From a virus: a DNA stretch of 64,000 nt. Location of the stretch: positions 1-64,000 of the IMG/VR virus record IMGVR_UViG_3300035661_000037; one strand, given 5' to 3'. The position numbers were made by a program, and so were the translations under genes. The notes under the pieces were generated by a model that was given only the letters and a program-made list of their open reading frames with translations, made no database searches and was not told the origin of the DNA. Below, piece by piece: positions 2,884 through 49,958 of this stretch; the stretch's first letter is position 1, and each line of letters begins with the position of its first letter.

Positions 2884-3165
2884 AATCTCCCGAGGTGGCA
2901 AATATTGTCTTAGAGTGTTGGATTTTTATGGCTGATGTAGATCTTGTGGGGCGGCATAACTCAGTTGCAGCACTCTTTAGTCCTAATAATATATGGGGTT
3001 GGCATCATCATGAGGGGGCTATTTGTTGTCGGTAGCTATAAGTAGTATCCCGCATATAAGGGTGATAAGAAGTATGTTAGTATGGTGTGTCGAAGGTATT
3101 TAATTATTTTAAGGTGCTGCATATAGCATATAATATTGTCCAACTGTATGAAATTGTTAAAGATT

Positions 3166-3451: not shown

Positions 3452-3766
3452 TTACAAACAGATAGCAGAATGGTTTATACGCTCTACCTTTATGTTATCC
3501 CATGCGTATTTCGCCGGATATCGCAACAACTTGTCTTGTATTTTAGCTTTAAACTCATTCTCTGAGAGATCTAGCTGCATCATTACTATGGCTTTGATAC
3601 GAGATATGCCAAGTTTTTCGCCAGATTTACTAGTAATAAACAGAGTATTAGGGCTGCTTAGGCGAAATACTAGCCGTTTAGGGTCATTCTTGTATGTTAT
3701 ATGCCCTGTAATTTTATTGTAGTCTAGGGTTTCACGCAGCAACTTAGTTTTGTAGTTTGTACTCAT
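3452..3766 (-). CDS. degenerate HNH homing-endonuclease-like protein
   Basis: LDYNKITGHITYK N-terminus parallels the neighbour's LRYEPDSGRFTWK; no intact HNH. Confidence 0.5.
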   Translation of the reverse strand: MSTNYKTKLLRETLDYNKITGHITYKNDPKRLVFRLSSPNTLFITSKSGEKLGISRIKAIVMMQLDLSENEFKAKIQDKLLRYPAKYAWDNIKVERINHSAICL

Positions 3767-6481: not shown

Positions 6482-6702
6482 CGAGAATAACTATATATTT
6501 GACACACCTAACTAAGATATGTATAATGGTTGACATCGGTAGCACAAACTACATAATACATAAGAGTAGATATAAAAATGACTTTACTAACATACGTGAT
6601 AATCTACGGCACCCTGTTCAGCGGGTTGTTTGCAATAGCCACACTAATAACATGTATTCTGTTCCCAGGGACATTAAATGAAATTTTAAAGGATATAAAA
6701 TA

Positions 6703-7029
6703 ATGAGCGAAGAACATGTAAAGCTTTTGAAAGCGGCTAAGACAATACTTGCTCAGGATGCAACAAAAATTTATGTTTGTAGCGCTGTAAAAACCGCAGC
6801 TAAACGGTTTTACCATGCAAACCGGCTATATAAACACTCTGAGCCAGAAGTCTATGACATACTAACAGCGATTGAAATTGCTCTAAGCAAGACCATATTT
6901 GGAGGCAGACACACAGTCCAGACTTGGCTAGAAGAGAGGTTTGGAATTTATGCTACACCTGAAGAGTTGCTTCAATATCGCCTATCTTGGATAGACAACA
7001 TGATCGAATATTGGAAGAATAAGCCATAA
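6703..7029 (+). CDS. hypothetical protein
   Basis: 108 aa with AAGGA RBS. Confidence 0.75.
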   Translation: MSEEHVKLLKAAKTILAQDATKIYVCSAVKTAAKRFYHANRLYKHSEPEVYDILTAIEIALSKTIFGGRHTVQTWLEERFGIYATPEELLQYRLSWIDNMIEYWKNKP

Positions 7030-7158
7030 TATACCATAACAAAAAGGCGAAACACAACAGACGTTACCTGTAGTTAGTAAAAATTTTAGATTTACAAAAA
7101 TCTGTAAAGCAAAGGGCAGTATTCAAAATACCGTAAATGAAATTTTAAAGGAGATTAA

Positions 7159-7344
7159 ATGATATACGCCATACTATTCTCTACATGGTACGCCGTTGGA
7201 GTGCTATCGATCGTATTTTGGTGGTCTATGACAACCACAGTAAAATTACCACTACGACTTGCACTTTTAGTAGGTTTCTGGGGCGTACTTGCGTTCTTTA
7301 TAGGATGGCTTATACATGCCCAAAACATACAACTTGAAAAATAG
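7159..7344 (+). CDS. small two-TM membrane protein
   Basis: AAGGAG RBS; two hydrophobic segments. Confidence 0.7.
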   Translation: MIYAILFSTWYAVGVLSIVFWWSMTTTVKLPLRLALLVGFWGVLAFFIGWLIHAQNIQLEK

Positions 7345-7394
7345 TAGACACTGTGCTATAATTATCCGAAATAATCTTACAAAGGATATATTAT

Positions 7395-7871
7395 ATGCTT
7401 AGAATATGTATAGGTCTACTTAGTTTTTTAGTGTTTTCATCAATACAAGCGAATGGAGAACAACTTATTGTACCACCAAAACACATTGTGGATATAGCAA
7501 ATAGTTTGGCGTACCCTGATTTCCCAACAACACTAGACATTATTAGTATAATACGTGTTGAGAGTGCGTTTAACGCCAATGCAATAAACCCCGAGCGCTC
7601 CAGCCACCGTGGGGCTAGTATGGGGCTGATGCAGGTTCAGCGGGGATCGTTAAATGTTAGTACTAACATGCACCAAGGCGTTGCACTGCTTAGAGAGTAC
7701 TATATACGCCTAGGGCGCGATAAAGCAGCGGCGGTAAAGAGCTACAACATAGGTATTGGTGCGTATAAAAAAGGGAAGGCTACGATAAGTGCATCACAGT
7801 ATTATGCCAAGTTCAGAAAGCGGAGAGCAGAGTATATAAAGTATTATGTTAATAAGGTAGTTATTAACTAG
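7395..7871 (+). CDS. SLT-type lytic transglycosylase with N-terminal signal/anchor
   Basis: IRVESAFN catalytic ES motif, GLMQ, SYNIG; own TTGAAA-17-TATAAT promoter. Confidence 0.85.
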   Translation: MLRICIGLLSFLVFSSIQANGEQLIVPPKHIVDIANSLAYPDFPTTLDIISIIRVESAFNANAINPERSSHRGASMGLMQVQRGSLNVSTNMHQGVALLREYYIRLGRDKAAAVKSYNIGIGAYKKGKATISASQYYAKFRKRRAEYIKYYVNKVVIN

Positions 7872-7975
7872 CAAGGAGAAATCTACGCCGGTCGACTGGC
7901 AACATTCGGAATTTAACTATTTGGTGTGGTTGCCAATACAGGAAGTTAGGATTACTTTTAAAAGAGAGACGAATT

Positions 7976-8158
7976 ATGAGTGGATGCAAAATGGTAATTA
8001 TAGAAAGTGGACAAGACTTAGAAATCACATGGGAGTGCTCTAATTGCGGCACAATTCATAAAGCAACAGATAAATTTGAAAGTTCAAAGTTTTGTCCTAA
8101 ATGCGGGTTAAAAATAACTAAATGGGTAGGGTTAGATGATTATGAGGATGACGCCTAA
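7976..8158 (+). CDS. zinc-ribbon protein
   Basis: CSNC...CPKC; stop lies inside GCCTAAC. Confidence 0.75.
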   Translation: MSGCKMVIIESGQDLEITWECSNCGTIHKATDKFESSKFCPKCGLKITKWVGLDDYEDDA

Positions 8159-8314
8159 CGTAAAGCTAAAGATGTTCAACTACGACTATAAGACAGCAAA
8201 GCTCCGTGCCCGTGCTGTCCGAAGAGCAACATTTTAAATTTTACTATTTGTTTAGTACAGTTTCACCAACTAGCATGATAATTTTTTGTAACGTTATCGC
8301 TGAAATGGCACGTA

Positions 8315-8554
8315 ATGAAGAACGTTAAGCAATTGCTAATGAAGCCACGAACTTGGCGGTGCAAAGATGGATTAGTCTGGAATTATAAAGGAGATAGCTG
8401 CATGTCAAAACTTTTTATACCGCCACCAAGCATGGAAAATTTAATTTCATACTTTGTCGAATGGATTGCAAAGAATATGGGAGCAAGGGTAACAATTAAT
8501 GTTTACTGGCATGATGGAAAACATTTTACAGAAGAATCGGATGGCAGGGGCTAA
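8315..8554 (+). CDS. hypothetical protein (start uncertain)
   Basis: ORF ending in GGCTAAC; internal ATG at 8402 has an AAGGAG RBS. Confidence 0.55.
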   Translation: MKNVKQLLMKPRTWRCKDGLVWNYKGDSCMSKLFIPPPSMENLISYFVEWIAKNMGARVTINVYWHDGKHFTEESDGRG

Positions 8555-8635
8555 CGATGAGGTAAGTGGCGTGACACTTTACAAGTTCACTTATCGAATA
8601 GAAAGTTATAGCACATTTTACAAAGGATATTAGCA

Positions 8636-8818
8636 ATGACAACAGGGACAGGGCTTTTTGTACTCGGGGCATGGCTGGTTTTGGTGGCTGCATACGCCAC
8701 GGATAAAGTTAATGAAATTGGAATGAATCGTGCAAGAAATGTCGCGTGGTTAGCTACATTACTGGGGTTAGTTGTGACAGCGGCGTATCACCCTTGGGTA
8801 CTGGCTCATGCGTTCTAA
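8636..8818 (+). CDS. small two-TM membrane protein
   Basis: AAGGA RBS; stop inside TTCTAAC. Confidence 0.75.
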   Translation: MTTGTGLFVLGAWLVLVAAYATDKVNEIGMNRARNVAWLATLLGLVVTAAYHPWVLAHAF

Positions 8819-8895
8819 CGTTAAATTAACGGGCTACCAAATAAAGAAAGGATAACACAGAAATGCCCGACTTAGAGTTACATTAGGAAGAGAAG

Positions 8896-9138
8896 ATGAG
8901 CAAAATTGATGACTTAAAAGGAATGCAAGTTGGTACAGTCGAACAAGTTTCAAAATTTAGAAGCGAAGCATTGTCTGAATTGTCGGCACAGACACATAGA
9001 GCAAATGTACTCGCAGCGACCATAAGAGATTTGATCGGGGTAATAACATTTGATGGGGAAACTAAGCAAGAGTTTATAGGTAGAGTACGTAATATTCTTG
9101 CTGATGACTCTGATAAACGCGTTCAGCACAAACTTTAA
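8896..9138 (+). CDS. hypothetical protein
   Basis: 80 aa with AGGA RBS. Confidence 0.7.
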   Translation: MSKIDDLKGMQVGTVEQVSKFRSEALSELSAQTHRANVLAATIRDLIGVITFDGETKQEFIGRVRNILADDSDKRVQHKL

Positions 9139-9191
9139 AATTGGCCATATCGCTTTTTCGCATACCGAGTCGAACTACGAAATGATAAAAG

Positions 9192-9332
9192 ATGAAAATT
9201 ATTAACCGATTTATTTGTGTGATATTTGGGCATGATGCCGCCGATAATAGAGTTGCAAAAATGTACAACTTGCAGGATAGAACTTGTATGTGGCAATGCC
9301 CTAGATGCGGCGTAGGTGTACACGGCAAATGA
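9192..9332 (+). CDS. small Cys/His protein (46 aa, CVIFGH...CPRC)
   Basis: Read manually; typical small phage zinc-binding pattern. Confidence 0.6.
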   Translation: MKIINRFICVIFGHDAADNRVAKMYNLQDRTCMWQCPRCGVGVHGK

Positions 9333-9393
9333 TGAAGACTAACGTAAAGGTAATGAGGGCGGGATGTGCACATACGAAGAAAGGAAAAGTATT

Positions 9394-9618
9394 ATGAGCA
9401 AAATTTCTGAGGTGCTTGACTATTTAAAACCAGCAACAGATGAAAATGGCAGCCCTATTTTGCAACATGAATATGACAGGTTGAAGGCTTTTGAACAGAT
9501 GATATTACAATCTAAGCCTGCCGCATGGATGAATGTAGATAAGCACGGTGGAGCTATGTTTTTTCGATCCCCAAACACATTTAACGCAGTGCCGCTAATT
9601 GTATCGCCTAACGTATAG
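9394..9618 (+). CDS. hypothetical protein
   Basis: ATG 9394 with AAGGA RBS; ends SPNV, reading through GCCTAAC. Confidence 0.7.
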   Translation: MSKISEVLDYLKPATDENGSPILQHEYDRLKAFEQMILQSKPAAWMNVDKHGGAMFFRSPNTFNAVPLIVSPNV

Positions 9619-9755
9619 CAACGTGTAACACCTAACATAATTGGAGAATAAAATGAGTGGCGACTTACTTAACTCGGCTGGAAAGATAGTAAACAAGGCC
9701 ATTGATAGTTAAGCCTTTCATAAAGCTAACTGGCTAATCCTGCAGAAAGAGAGAA

Positions 9756-9926
9756 ATGATACGATCTAAAAAAGCTACTGTAACAAAGAAAGAAATAATT
9801 AACTACATTTATTCTGTCACTTGCCCGCATTGTAAAACAGAGCTTCGCGGTGGAATAGGTAAGGGTGATTTACGAATTAAATGCTTTCAATGCAAGAAAC
9901 CAATTGAGTTAGTGCATGAGGACTAA
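9756..9926 (+). CDS. zinc-ribbon protein (56 aa, CPHC...CFQC)
   Basis: Read manually; stop inside GACTAAT. Confidence 0.65.
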   Translation: MIRSKKATVTKKEIINYIYSVTCPHCKTELRGGIGKGDLRIKCFQCKKPIELVHED

Positions 9927-9970
9927 TGTAGAGGTAACCGTGCTACCATTAACTGAAAGTGAGAATAGCA

Positions 9971-10228
9971 ATGACAAATGAAACAATAGCTTCATCTGAA
10001 CAAACTAGCAAGTCCGAGTTTAATGGCGGGTTAGAGCGCGAAATGATAAAAAACGCTCTGCTACATGAGGCTTCGCGGTGGAGTTATAATTATAAATTAC
10101 CGGTCTGGAAGGCCCTTAGATCGGCTGCAAAGCGCATGAATATCGACCTGTCAGAAGATGAATGCTATCGAGCAATGAAGCGCTCTAAGGCGAAATATAT
10201 GTTGCTTAAATTGGAGAATAGAAATTAG
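9971..10228 (+). CDS. hypothetical protein starting inside an attC-like loop
   Basis: MTNETIASSEQTSKSEFNGGLER; ORF track gives 9959. Confidence 0.6.
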   Translation: MTNETIASSEQTSKSEFNGGLEREMIKNALLHEASRWSYNYKLPVWKALRSAAKRMNIDLSEDECYRAMKRSKAKYMLLKLENRN

Positions 10229-10439
10229 CGAACAAATAAATACCCTAATTGTAATATTGACTTAGAAGATTTTATAACAGGGAAAGATTTGTACGTATCA
10301 AATTTCGATGTTGAAATCTATACCGGAAGATTACATATGAACTGCTGCCCTGAATGCAAATACATGGATGATAGTTCCATATGGTTTGGGTAATGCATAA
10401 TGTATTGGTGAGCACAAACTTACAACAAGGAGAATTAAA

Positions 10440-10865
10440 ATGAGCGAAGATACAATGAAACTATCAGAATTTTTTGCAGAAGCATCGCGGGCAGCAAAGA
10501 TGGAAGAGACTTATCCAGATGCATGCACACTTAAATACAAATCGCGCTGCTATAAAGTAAAAGACTTTACATCTTATGTCAACTGGGAATCGTGTTTTCA
10601 TGAAATAGAATTCGCCATGGGTATTCTAGAAGGCCAACCAGTGTTTAAGGATTCTGAGTTGTACTTAGATGGTAAAAAGCAAGTTGCAGGGCTAACAAGA
10701 TTTCTTATATGTGATGGGCCATCTTGGTCATGGAATCCACCACAGCCTCGCGCCGTAATGGTTGAGTTATCAGTTGAGGATGCCAAACACATAGTTACTT
10801 CCAGACTAACTGGCTTATCGGAATGCAGTGAAGCCTTTCATAAAGCATTAGGAGAATTAAAATGA
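10440..10865 (+). CDS. hypothetical protein
   Basis: 141 aa with AAGGAG RBS. Confidence 0.8.
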   Translation: MSEDTMKLSEFFAEASRAAKMEETYPDACTLKYKSRCYKVKDFTSYVNWESCFHEIEFAMGILEGQPVFKDSELYLDGKKQVAGLTRFLICDGPSWSWNPPQPRAVMVELSVEDAKHIVTSRLTGLSECSEAFHKALGELK

Positions 10866-11119
10866 GCGAATATATATTGAGAGGTAAGTTCGATGCGTGG
10901 TATAATGAGCAAGATGCGTCATTAATTCCATCTGATAACCTAGCGTTCCTTGCATTTGTGTATGCTGCAAAACTCAAAGACGATGAGGTAGATATATACA
11001 AGAAACAATATTTGTGGGAGTTAGAAGAAGCTACTCGAGTTGGCGATATAGCTACTCGCCGTTTAGAAGAGATTGAAAAACTAAACGCACGTATTGCGAT
11101 ATTGTGCGGATCGGTATAA
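10862..11119 (+). CDS. hypothetical protein
   Basis: ATGA overlap; AGGAG RBS. Confidence 0.75.
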   Translation: MSEYILRGKFDAWYNEQDASLIPSDNLAFLAFVYAAKLKDDEVDIYKKQYLWELEEATRVGDIATRRLEEIEKLNARIAILCGSV

Positions 11120-11184
11120 TCCCTATAACACGGTAAAAGGATGCTAAAGTTTACGTATAATATATAACTTAATAGGAGAAAACA

Positions 11185-11421
11185 TTGAGGGAATTCGCTT
11201 TTGGAACATTATTACTAATAATACTAATCGGTATTGGTTTATCTTTTATAGCACCGACGATGTGTCGGGATGATACTGATGGAGACTCACTTCGTCGTAG
11301 TGGGTTAAAATTAAGAACAGATGCGCGTACGGGGTGCCAATATATTGAAGGTAGTTATGGTGGCATTACACCTAGACTTGATGGGGCAGGCACACAGATG
11401 GGGTGTCTACTAAAGAAATGA
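11185..11421 (+). CDS. membrane-anchored small protein (SGLKLRTDARTGCQY...GGITPRLD)
   Basis: N-terminal TM; AGGAG RBS; recurrent phage motif. Confidence 0.75.
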   Translation: MREFAFGTLLLIILIGIGLSFIAPTMCRDDTDGDSLRRSGLKLRTDARTGCQYIEGSYGGITPRLDGAGTQMGCLLKK

Positions 11422-11466
11422 TTGACCAAACCAAAGTTATCAAATATAATGTTCGAACTGAATTAA
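11422..11466 (+). promoter_or_regulatory. sigma70 promoter with GAACTGAATTAA downstream motif
   Basis: TTGACC-17-TATAAT-N4-GAACTGAATTAA. Confidence 0.75.
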
Positions 11467-11484
11467 ACAACTTAGGATAATAAA

Positions 11485-11778
11485 ATGAGCAACATTATAT
11501 TTAAAGACATGGAAGTGACAATCGTAGGCTGCACGTTCATAGTAGACTATCGTATATCCTCAGGATTACAAGAAACACTATTTAACCCAGAAGATCCTAA
11601 AGAAGTTGAGATACTCACAGTATCAGTAAAAGGGCAGCCAGACGCAGACGCAGACATGTTACTGGAAGCCATAAAAGTATCTCTAAACCTCTCACATTCA
11701 ACGAAGTCTGGTATACGTTTCGAGAACGGATACGACCTGCTAACACAAGAAATCTTAGAAAGCGACCAATATGCTTAA
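11485..11778 (+). CDS. hypothetical protein
   Basis: 97 aa with AGGA RBS. Confidence 0.75.
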   Translation: MSNIIFKDMEVTIVGCTFIVDYRISSGLQETLFNPEDPKEVEILTVSVKGQPDADADMLLEAIKVSLNLSHSTKSGIRFENGYDLLTQEILESDQYA

Positions 11779-11989
11779 TGTAATTTACACCATAGTTTTA
11801 GTACCTTTCGGAATATTGTCAATAGCATTTATAGGAGTCGCAGTACTTTTTATAGTGGCGGTTGTTGCAATATCTAAAGTTTTGGGTATGCCCATGATTA
11901 TTTACAATATTTTAGTAGCTTATGATGTTGACCGAGAACGTAAACTGATGTTCCCAGAACGGTACGACGCTAAAGGAAATCGAAAATGA
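11771..11989 (+). CDS. membrane protein
   Basis: Hydrophobic; coupled to both neighbours. Confidence 0.65.
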   Translation: MLNVIYTIVLVPFGILSIAFIGVAVLFIVAVVAISKVLGMPMIIYNILVAYDVDRERKLMFPERYDAKGNRK

Positions 11990-12285
11990 CTGAAAGTATC
12001 GAGGGTGAAGATGACCTTGAACCATTGAGTTCAGACCACGACATTTCGCGAAGTATTAGCCATGCGGTAGATGTCCTGAGCGACTTGGACGCTAACATAT
12101 CCGAAGAGATCGACCTAGAAAATGTAACAGTGACTATAAATGCCCATAACCTAGCAAGTATCTGCGGGGCTCTGCTGTCTTACTGCGAAGAATACGATGG
12201 TGTAGACGTATCAGAGATGTTTGAAATGAGATACTTAGAGCGATCACATGGTACAGGTGATGAAGATAAAAGAACAATACATTGA
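11986..12285 (+). CDS. acidic hypothetical protein
   Basis: 99 aa; ATGA overlap. Confidence 0.7.
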   Translation: MTESIEGEDDLEPLSSDHDISRSISHAVDVLSDLDANISEEIDLENVTVTINAHNLASICGALLSYCEEYDGVDVSEMFEMRYLERSHGTGDEDKRTIH

Positions 12286-49575: not shown

Positions 49576-49958
49576 ACAACTTCCTCAATCGTTTCCTTGC
49601 GGAATGTTTCAGGCTCTTCTGCCAAGTTCTCAATAAGTTTACGTAGATCAACATATTCTTTATCTAGCATGAGTTCTACGGCGGTTTCTTTGGTGAATGG
49701 TAGATCCGCACCATCCTTAGTGAACCCAGCCCAGCCCAGCAAAACTGTACCACAGTAACACTCCATAACTACGCGCTCTAGCTTATCGTTGTCCAAACTT
49801 TTGAAAGAGGTGCCAAATTTTTTGGCAACAATGCGAAGAGATTTATTAAATTTTTCGTTGCCAGCACGCGCCACAGTTACAGATGCGCCATCACCAATAT
49901 CTACTGTAGTTCCTTCTTGGCTCATCTTACCGTCTGTTTTAAACTTGTTCAAATTCAT
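49566..49958 (-). CDS. tail assembly chaperone (gpG-like)
   Basis: Between tube and tape measure genes; VARAGN, VLLGW.G; ends VKN. Confidence 0.85.
   Translation of the reverse strand: MNLNKFKTDGKMSQEGTTVDIGDGASVTVARAGNEKFNKSLRIVAKKFGTSFKSLDNDKLERVVMECYCGTVLLGWAGFTKDGADLPFTKETAVELMLDKEYVDLRKLIENLAEEPETFRKETIEEVVKN

Follow-up and report, generated by a model that had tools for sequence, protein, structure and literature searches.

Integron cassettes in phage genomes

Clusters of attC sites lacking an integrase (CALINs) are already known from virulent phages. Integron components turned up in 21 of 10,705 screened phage genomes, with 17 CALINs among them, and five of six attC sites tested from virulent phages recombine with attI1 under IntI1 (PMC9892861, 2023). 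Phage integron cassettes entered the literature only with that study, in a handful of genomes that have two or three sites each. The stretch of DNA considered here, referred to as the window, is the first 64 kb (positions 1 to 64,000) of IMG/VR virus record IMGVR_UViG_3300035661_000037, an 82,711-bp phage genome with direct terminal repeats that is rated complete. Between 7.9 and 10.1 kb, in its early region, the window probably carries the fossil of an integron-type cassette array in a phage that lacks an integrase. The fossil led to intact arrays, with up to 12 sites, in metagenomic phages.

How does this locus compare with the published phage CALINs? Both have attC sites with small open reading frames (ORFs) between them, in phage genomes without intI. 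First, the window's own sites are too decayed for an attC model to call. Second, the intact relatives are larger, with 12 model matches in 7.5 kb of one contig (L070) compared with three attC sites in TJE1. Third, all of the ORFs here lie on the side of the attC bottom strand, some attC loops contain the translation start of the next gene, and one cassette occurs in five contexts. The original prediction, made from the letters of the window alone, had proposed a decayed cassette array of this kind; given the integrase-less attC clusters that PMC9892861 describes in virulent phages, the idea itself is not new, although a literature search turned up no further paper devoted mainly to attC arrays of phages. 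The features that seem to be new are the eroded sites, an orientation that is reversed throughout, translation starts within attC loops, the size of the arrays in the relatives and the presence of one cassette in five contexts, with the proviso that PMC9892861 may itself describe ORF orientation or larger arrays.

The phage elements can also be compared with bacterial arrays, such as those of Thiobacillus denitrificans RG (L077) and Pseudomonas sp. G34 (L128), and with the attC sites of class 1 integrons. All share an R box, a 5-nt spacer, an L box, bulges and a variable loop. The bacterial arrays lie beside intI and their ORFs are opposite to the strand on which attC models match (the model strand), whereas the phage arrays are without intI and their ORFs are on the model strand. 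A different kind of phage element, the promoter-early-stem-loop (PeSL) mobile regulatory cassette of T4-type phages, consists of structured repeats flanking small early genes in a hyperplastic region, and has been proposed to allow modular shuffling. PeSL cassettes carry an early promoter and recombine by homology. In contrast, the elements described here have integron R and L boxes and match attC models, and sigma-70-like promoters are not enriched in the region; nor are promoters or terminators enriched at the repeats between 6200 and 13000.

Well-formed sites in related phage contigs

The link between the window and intact arrays was first made through a single gene. When ORFs of at least 50 aa from the genome were compared by tblastn with loci from a pattern scan, the one match in the region was ORF 8315..8554, which is 75% identical to a gene of a complete 35.4-kb phage record (L039), where the matching gene is flanked by well-formed hairpins. 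This ORF shares its end with gene X (8402..8554, + strand), a cassette gene of 50 aa. A scan of metagenomes for gene X found five contigs: L069, L070, L071, L072 (which is the L039 contig) and L073. Nucleotide identity to all five is 92–94% across gene X and its flanks, and these contigs hold many copies of the element that flanks it. The gene X protein has just two homologue clusters in a large protein database, and no relative was found in the species genomes. One more contig, L074, matched gene X weakly over 13 residues and was set aside.

Are these elements attC sites? A textbook attC site has an R stem, an internal loop and an L stem with single-nucleotide bulges. In folds of the relatives' sites, the R stem is 5 bp long and opens into an internal loop of 5+5 nt, beyond which the L stem is interrupted by bulges of a single G and a single T. 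For example, both strands of L039(-) 6268-6178 have a minimum-free-energy fold in which CTAAC pairs with GTTAG over 5 bp, followed by a 5+5 nt internal loop and then by a long stem that two single-nucleotide bulges interrupt (fold z −1.9 and −2.65); the first L039 site has fold z-scores of −2.8 and −2.6. RNAalifold gave a partial structure on alignment A2, and a hand-drawn R/L structure was tested in its place. Across nine aligned compact sites, 80.6% of cells pair under this structure, compared with 33–55% when partners are slid, and seven pairs show compensatory change on both sides.

The same element is found beside integron integrases in bacteria. A pattern derived from the phage sites matches 105 stretches in bacterial species genomes, where a rough estimate gives less than one match by chance. 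The matches are mostly in Beta- and Gammaproteobacteria, with some in Nitrospirota and Planctomycetes. IntI scores above the TIGR02249 cut-off in all five of the pattern-matching isolates checked and in none of 14 control genomes; in four of the five isolates, the match is on the intI contig and on the same strand as intI, ~1–6 kb from it in the upstream (attI) direction. Covariance models point the same way. R1, built from the phage sites, scores the T. denitrificans array sites at up to 77 bits, equal to its own training sequences. R2, for which only bacterial sites (21 of them) were used, identifies 30 sites in the 44 kb of L069–L073 (E ≤ 0.013, 18–65 bits): 12 in L070, eight in L072, five in L069, four in L073 and one in L071. 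An annotated class 1 integron (plasmid NZ_MT077883.1) served as the independent check on R2, which recovered the attC after aadA1 at 62.5 bits (E 1e-14) and the attC after dfrA15 at 21.6 bits. Since R2 finds both the relatives' elements and class 1 attC, and since R and L boxes, unpaired spacers and bulges are all present in L069–L073 and L039, the relatives' elements are attC by every sequence and structure criterion applied. A covariance model does not distinguish the well-formed sites from bacterial and class 1 attC sites. The genome of L039/L072 (G001), with eight sites and no match to PF00589, is a CALIN, defined as at least two model-positive attC sites without an integrase. In T. denitrificans RG, intI adjoins at least nine model-positive attC sites. 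That intI lies in two overlapping pieces in different frames (G003:C27 118439-119400), which suggests that it is frameshifted.

A strict pattern scan of IMG/VR yielded eight contigs, each with 1–13 R2 sites, some of which may be bacterial fragments. One of the loci, IMGVR_UViG_3300045918_000461 (L188), is 4.5 kb long, is filed as viral and has 13 attC matches; it may be a fragment of a bacterial integron rather than of a phage.

Decayed sites in the window

The original prediction rested on short boxes at the ends of small genes, and every string that it quoted is present. Six R''-like boxes followed after 5 nt by an L''-like box start at 8153, 8549, 8813, 9337, 9921 and 10395, accompanied by GCCTAAC at 9606, GTTAGG at 7945, GTTAGAGCGC at 10030 and GCGCTCTAAG at 10180. 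The claim that the TAA of the box doubles as the stop codon of the upstream gene holds for four of the five window sites scored (8151, 8547, 8811 and 9919), the exception being 9335. Clustering of the boxes in the window exceeds chance. The + strand of the 82.7-kb genome has 18 copies of CTAACG, and 8155-9608 accounts for five of them. The 22-nt degenerate motif ATGNNNNCTAAYGTNRARNTAA, with up to two mismatches, has four matches in the window compared with 0.40 expected, and none of 100 shuffles reaches four. All five genome-wide matches to the six-frame regular expression [STPA]N[VD][KE][VL], which was designed post hoc with the sites already seen, lie in the array. A near-identical box pattern, which fits three of the four ATGNNNNCTAAYGTNRARNTAA sites in the window (8148, 8808 and 9332), occurs in 65 of 2.9 million IMG/VR contigs, with one match in each and two in none. 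The strict motif ATGARGACTAAYGTARAGGTAA has no match in IMG/VR.

What are these boxes? Sites B (8547..8613), C (8811..8890) and E (9919..10038), together with a relic upstream of gene X (8320..8378), all on the + strand, align with model-positive sites of L039/L072, L070 and L069, which shows their descent from attC. On this homology, these boxes are decayed relics of true attC sites. Site B is the best preserved. It retains both the AAC and the GTT triplets (GGCTAAC...GTTATAG) and four of the five pairs of the R stem, has lost the extra G of the L box, and its L and R parts align with the second site of L039. Site C retains its left arm and a loop with a ribosome-binding site and an ATG. Its GTT has become ATT, and ~39 alignment columns of loop and right arm are gone relative to two L072 sites (alignment A4); L070 2698-2749 and L072(-) 3621-3570 and 3003-2955 share 86% identity with its left half (8814-8865). 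Site E is a long-loop relic, and the next gene begins inside its loop, which contains that gene's ribosome-binding site, ATG (9971) and opening codons. The AAC of site E has become AAT, the inner right arm has been lost by a 15-nt deletion (alignment A3), and the extra G has been replaced. Positions 9925-10012 are 82% identical to L072(-) 2660-2573, a stretch that is itself within a 41-bit R2 match. The relic upstream of gene X reads GAAGAAC..GTTAAGC...GGATTAGTC, with the GTT of its right-hand R box changed to ATT. It aligns with L039 (alignment A1), and blastn homology to the intact cassettes begins at 8357-8379. Sites A (8151..8182, + strand) and D (9335..9371, + strand) are half-sites. The former has an R box, GCCTAAC (8153-8159), a 5-nt spacer and an L-like box, with no right arm that can be recognised; the latter has GACTAAC-gtaaa-GGTAATG followed by a ribosome-binding site, and is without a right arm. 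The left arm of site A and site D both resemble an L070 half-site (2078-2120).

Could the boxes be coincidental? In an AT-rich early region, TAA codons and purine-rich ribosome-binding sites could mimic RYYYAAC boxes; the boxes are short and degenerate, and attC models do not separate the window's sites from background. The clustering statistics speak against this, and blastn of sites C and E against model-positive attC gives E-values of 1e-11 and 3e-19 (small databases). With homology already contradicting it, coincidence is hardly credible.

A second alternative treats the boxes as coding sequence. Five tiny ORFs of 15–32 aa, at 8139/8148, 8541, 8808, 9329/9332 and 9916, have the boxes as their first codons (M-R-T/S-N-V-K/E-V/L), and each starts 1–11 nt before the upstream stop, as expected of translationally coupled leader peptides. 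Moreover, several of the variable positions are third codon positions, the arginine is CGT in one ORF and AGG in another, and three of the five ORFs end at or within the start of the next gene. A leader-peptide family was an early working reading, and it was rejected because the frame shuts after one or two codons in well-formed relatives (L069 222 ..CCTAACGTGTAA; L070 9642 ..CCTAACGTATGA). In addition, the same bases form the R box, spacer and L box that match bacterial attC on the non-coding strand of cassettes. Hence, the apparent conservation of a peptide is a by-product of conserved DNA, and a leader-peptide function for the boxes is very improbable.

Orientation and breakpoints of the cassettes

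In the class 1 integron (L194) and in the Thiobacillus and Pseudomonas G34 arrays, models match on the strand that encodes intI, with the cassette ORFs on the other strand, which identifies the model strand as the attC bottom strand. The genes of L070 and of the window are on the model strand. Thus, the phage cassettes are reverse-oriented, unlike those of bacteria, and the strand assumed in the original prediction has to be reversed: it is the gene-sense strand that is the attC bottom strand. Integron crossover separates A from C within the R box of the bottom strand. This makes the AAC of the gene-terminal box (CTAA/C) the crossover triplet in the phage cassettes, rather than the G/TT of the right arm, and a cassette read in the sense of its gene runs C-attC-gene-...CTAA.

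Where do related contigs diverge? In L069, L070, L072 and L073, gene X is accompanied by an upstream attC, and the shared unit is that attC, gene X and CTAAC, which is a gene cassette. For example, L070 9916-10167 matches L072 9916-10168, and L070 9909-10154 matches L073 618-859. L071 and the window retain part of the unit, consisting of the gene and its nearer flank. Past CTAAC, the sequence is different in each of the five contexts of gene X, and the breakpoints are within ~10 nt of the R box. In the alignment of the window with L039, identity runs from the GTTAG box through the gene to CTAACG..TAAG.GG, is lost in the middle of the hairpin, returns over the right arm and then ends. Gene order differs as well. 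Gene Y (8896..9138, + strand, 80 aa; 8888-9131 is 86.5% identical to L070 1594-1837) is 8 kb upstream of gene X in L070 and downstream of it in the window. Beyond the gene X unit, gene Y (in the window and L070) and short attC-sized stretches, the loci have no long stretch in common, in a comparison that covered window positions 7001-11500 and the examined parts of each contig (20 kb of the 42.3-kb contig in the case of L070). The prediction that relatives would break at the boxes is right in that cassette-sized units end at the R box in otherwise dissimilar contigs, and wrong in that the triplet is AAC rather than G/TT. Intact sites and the sharing of some of the same genes by unrelated phages from similar samples indicate that phages appear to swap small genes as integron-type cassettes.

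Further pieces of the array are found in the metagenomes themselves. The window's stretch is contained in four runs (X1–X4) from microbial-mat and sediment metagenomes, three of them possible sources of this DNA, in which other contigs carry pieces matching 8298-8347, 8385-8555, 8817-8865, 9177-9345 and 9658-9709; several of the unmatched ends read as attC arms. Copies of 9177-9345, which includes a zinc-ribbon gene (9192..9332), have 6–22 differences and a depth of up to 266, compared with ~20 for the phage. Their homology stops at 9338, 9345 or 9353, beside box D.

Is an integrase needed to account for these exchanges? The phage has none of its own, as had been predicted: PF00589 (tyrosine recombinase) has no match in the complete genomes of the window phage (G000, 82.7 kb) or of L039/L072 (both 100% complete by tool estimate), and tblastn with bacterial IntI found nothing in G000, L039 or L069–L073. 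One alternative is that elements descended from attC are kept and shuffled without any integrase, the 15–20-nt R and L boxes serving as microhomology for phage homologous recombination and the hairpins as RNA signals for stability, processing or weak termination, a mode of action attributed to the PeSL cassettes of T4-type phages. The absence of an integrase from both complete phages fits this proposal, as does the presence of breakpoints at both ends of the hairpin and not at the AAC crossover alone. The sense strand carries the hairpin, so the mRNA would contain it, and PMC9892861 itself raises homologous or illegitimate recombination at GTTRRRY repeats. Nevertheless, features that matter only to IntI are kept across the ~30 sites of the relatives, namely both triplets (AAC and GTT), spacers of 5 nt that stay unpaired, and G and T bulges confined to one arm. 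Between 6200 and 13000 there are 22 promoter-like sites compared with 21.6 expected and five terminator-like sites compared with 4.2, and no listed terminator is at a box. Shuffling without an integrase is an unlikely account of the array.

State of the window's own sites

Several results weigh against reading 7.9–10.1 kb as the fossil of a cassette array. No window site reaches significance with either attC model, although such a site scoring above background had been the proposed check. Site B scores 12.8 bits with R1 (E 0.27, whole window) and 10.7 bits with R2 (E 1.7 for the whole window and 0.071 when the search is limited to 7800-10500). The corresponding R2 scores are 9.5 bits for site E (E 3.5 and 0.15), 6.9 bits for a partial match at site A (E 0.71, region-limited) and 3.0 bits for site C (E 7.2, region-limited). 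Site D scores 7.2 bits with R1 (E 9.7), and the relic before gene X has no significant match (2.8 bits, 8284-8332). An R2 background match at 49761 scores 11.3 bits, above the best R2 score in the array. With no model-positive site, the window does not qualify as a CALIN.

The window's sites also fail to fold. The complementary right arms proposed for 8549-8611, 8813-8888 and 9921-10036 contain the R'-like strings, but sites B, C and E fold like dinucleotide shuffles on both strands, with z-scores of −0.88 and −0.45 for B, −0.08 and −0.42 for C, and +1.35 and −0.04 for E. In these folds, none of the three forms a stable imperfect hairpin with pairing L boxes and extrahelical bases. Inverted R boxes with both AAC and GTT are present only in site B; the triplets are AAT...GTT in site E and AAC...ATT in site C and in the relic before gene X, and sites A and D have no right box. 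The boxes at 10395 and 7945 gained no support from any result, and that at 9606 has just a weak partial R2 match (9604-9716, 4.3 bits, E 3.3).

Other points concern the relatives. R2 is not fully independent, because the search that supplied its sites used R1, a model of phage sites. Just nine of 26 relatives' sites have a box whose TAA ends the upstream ORF, in a scoring that skipped four further sites with ATAAC or ACAAC boxes. Homology also begins at the R box on the GTTAG side, for gene X (in the window, and in L069 compared with L070 and L072) and for gene Y, which is not predicted by a single bottom-strand crossover. Recombination takes place at the GTTAG end too, either by the top strand or by homology. 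Finally, the phage's own contigs in the four runs contain no joints, indels or excision joints, in assemblies that cannot reveal rare forms.

The proposal of a decayed attC array thus stands on descent, by homology, for sites B, C and E and the relic before gene X, and falls short in that no window site passes a model. Since none scores above background, the window's sites are probably no longer substrates and, by this model-based measure, probably inert.

Proposed origin and maintenance of the array

How could such an array have formed? The ancestral unit would have been a cassette made up of an attC site, a ribosome-binding site and a small ORF ending in ...CTAA. With the ORF on the bottom-strand side of attC, the AAC crossover triplet would fall at the 3' end of the gene, and its TAA would often terminate translation. 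Where the attC loop is long, loop and right arm together would give the next gene its ribosome-binding site, start codon and first codons. We infer that the arrays were assembled and rearranged by the integron integrase of a host, supplied in trans and working on folded single strands. In this phage, point mutations and deletions would later have eroded the sites until they were no longer substrates. What remains of them may have been kept for its present use as a source of stop codons, ribosome-binding sites and N-terminal codons.

A broader scenario is possible, though it is offered tentatively. Unrelated integrase-less phages of one sediment/mat community might share a pool of reverse-oriented cassettes, in which attC has been remodelled into a portable expression adaptor: the R box would provide the stop, and the loop would provide the ribosome-binding site, the start and a short N-terminal peptide. 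Such phages might use the IntI of their hosts as their own shuffler. The window phage could then represent a lineage that left an IntI-bearing host, so that its array was frozen and its sites eroded while the adaptor roles were kept.

What are the implications of a fossil cassette array in a phage? First, the comparison of contigs offers direct comparative evidence that small early phage genes, possibly with anti-defence functions, move as integron-type cassettes. Second, reversed orientation and translation starts within attC loops are not expected by standard integron annotation. Third, the eroded sites of the window would fall below thresholds of the IntegronFinder type, so phage cassette arrays may be under-counted.

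Genes and minor features of the region

The array is part of a string of small + strand genes at 6.2–13 kb. Nucleotide searches found no close relative of the window phage among isolated phages, and positions 7000-12000 of the window have no match in INPHARED in near or distant mode. The best identity of the DNA polymerase to that of an isolated phage is 34%; it is 52% identical to those of two IMG/VR contigs, both of which end before the early region. A neighbouring methyltransferase was tried as a route to relatives and gave an unrelated contig, L001. Relatives of the neighbouring 141-aa and 476-aa proteins were sought, and none was found.

Nine small proteins of the cargo were compared with PHROG, and two of them matched. 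The first gene of the array (7976..8158, + strand) encodes a 60-aa zinc-ribbon protein similar to phrog_6422, a "Lar-like restriction alleviation protein" (E 1.1e-6), and ends at the TAA of box A. An anti-restriction function of this cassette is possible. The second match is a weak one, between the 56-aa zinc-ribbon protein of 9756..9926 (+ strand), which ends at the TAA of box E, and phrog_16376 (E 9e-4). Among the seven proteins without a match is a 60-aa protein with two hydrophobic segments recognised by eye (8636..8818, + strand), the gene for which ends at the TAA of box C, as gene X does at that of box B. The 46-aa zinc-ribbon gene at 9192..9332 (+ strand) precedes site D, and diverged copies of it are present in other contigs of the same metagenomes. 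At 9606..9618 (+ strand), GCCTAACGTATAG lies within the end of gene 9394..9618 and is a possible, unsupported relic of a left arm. An 18-codon ORF follows at 9654..9710 (+ strand). Its counterparts on other contigs from these samples are followed by a well-formed left arm of attC: the pieces matching 9658-9709 have a loose end past 9709 that consists of an R box, a spacer and a GGTAAGGGGC-type L arm. The last of the boxes, GCATAAT-gtatt-GGTGAGC (10395..10413, + strand), is present, with no model match or homologue to mark it as a relic.

The 85-aa gene at 9971..10228 (+ strand) starts inside the loop of site E, and its codons for ...SEFNGGLER are the right arm of that site (L'-spacer-R'). The similarity of its product to L072 is limited to the N-terminal ~31–36 aa. 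Long-loop attC sites with a ribosome-binding site and an ATG in the loop are also present at L069 834-962 and at L072(-) 3499-3625, 2884-3009 and 2532-2666, and a recurring ...LNGGL... at the N-terminus of otherwise unrelated proteins is the translated right arm of such sites. Further into the same gene, GCGCTCTAAG (10180-10189) is identical, except for its last base, to the extended R box GCGCTCTAAC of intact sites (L072 9912 and L069 1141), and could be one more relic.

Repeats of other kinds are present in the early region. Many early genes have in common a near-identical translation start (AGGAGAATTAAAATGAGCGAA-type) and a protein beginning with MS(K/E/G), for example at 10428-10458, 10850-10880, 6702-6713 and 9634-9657. 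These start repeats (families D1, D3 and D11) are distinct from the attC relics. A 25-nt direct repeat (family D12) with 84% identity between its copies is found at 7899-7923, just before the first gene of the array, and at 8226-8250, just after site A; the two copies may mark right-arm remnants of two sites.

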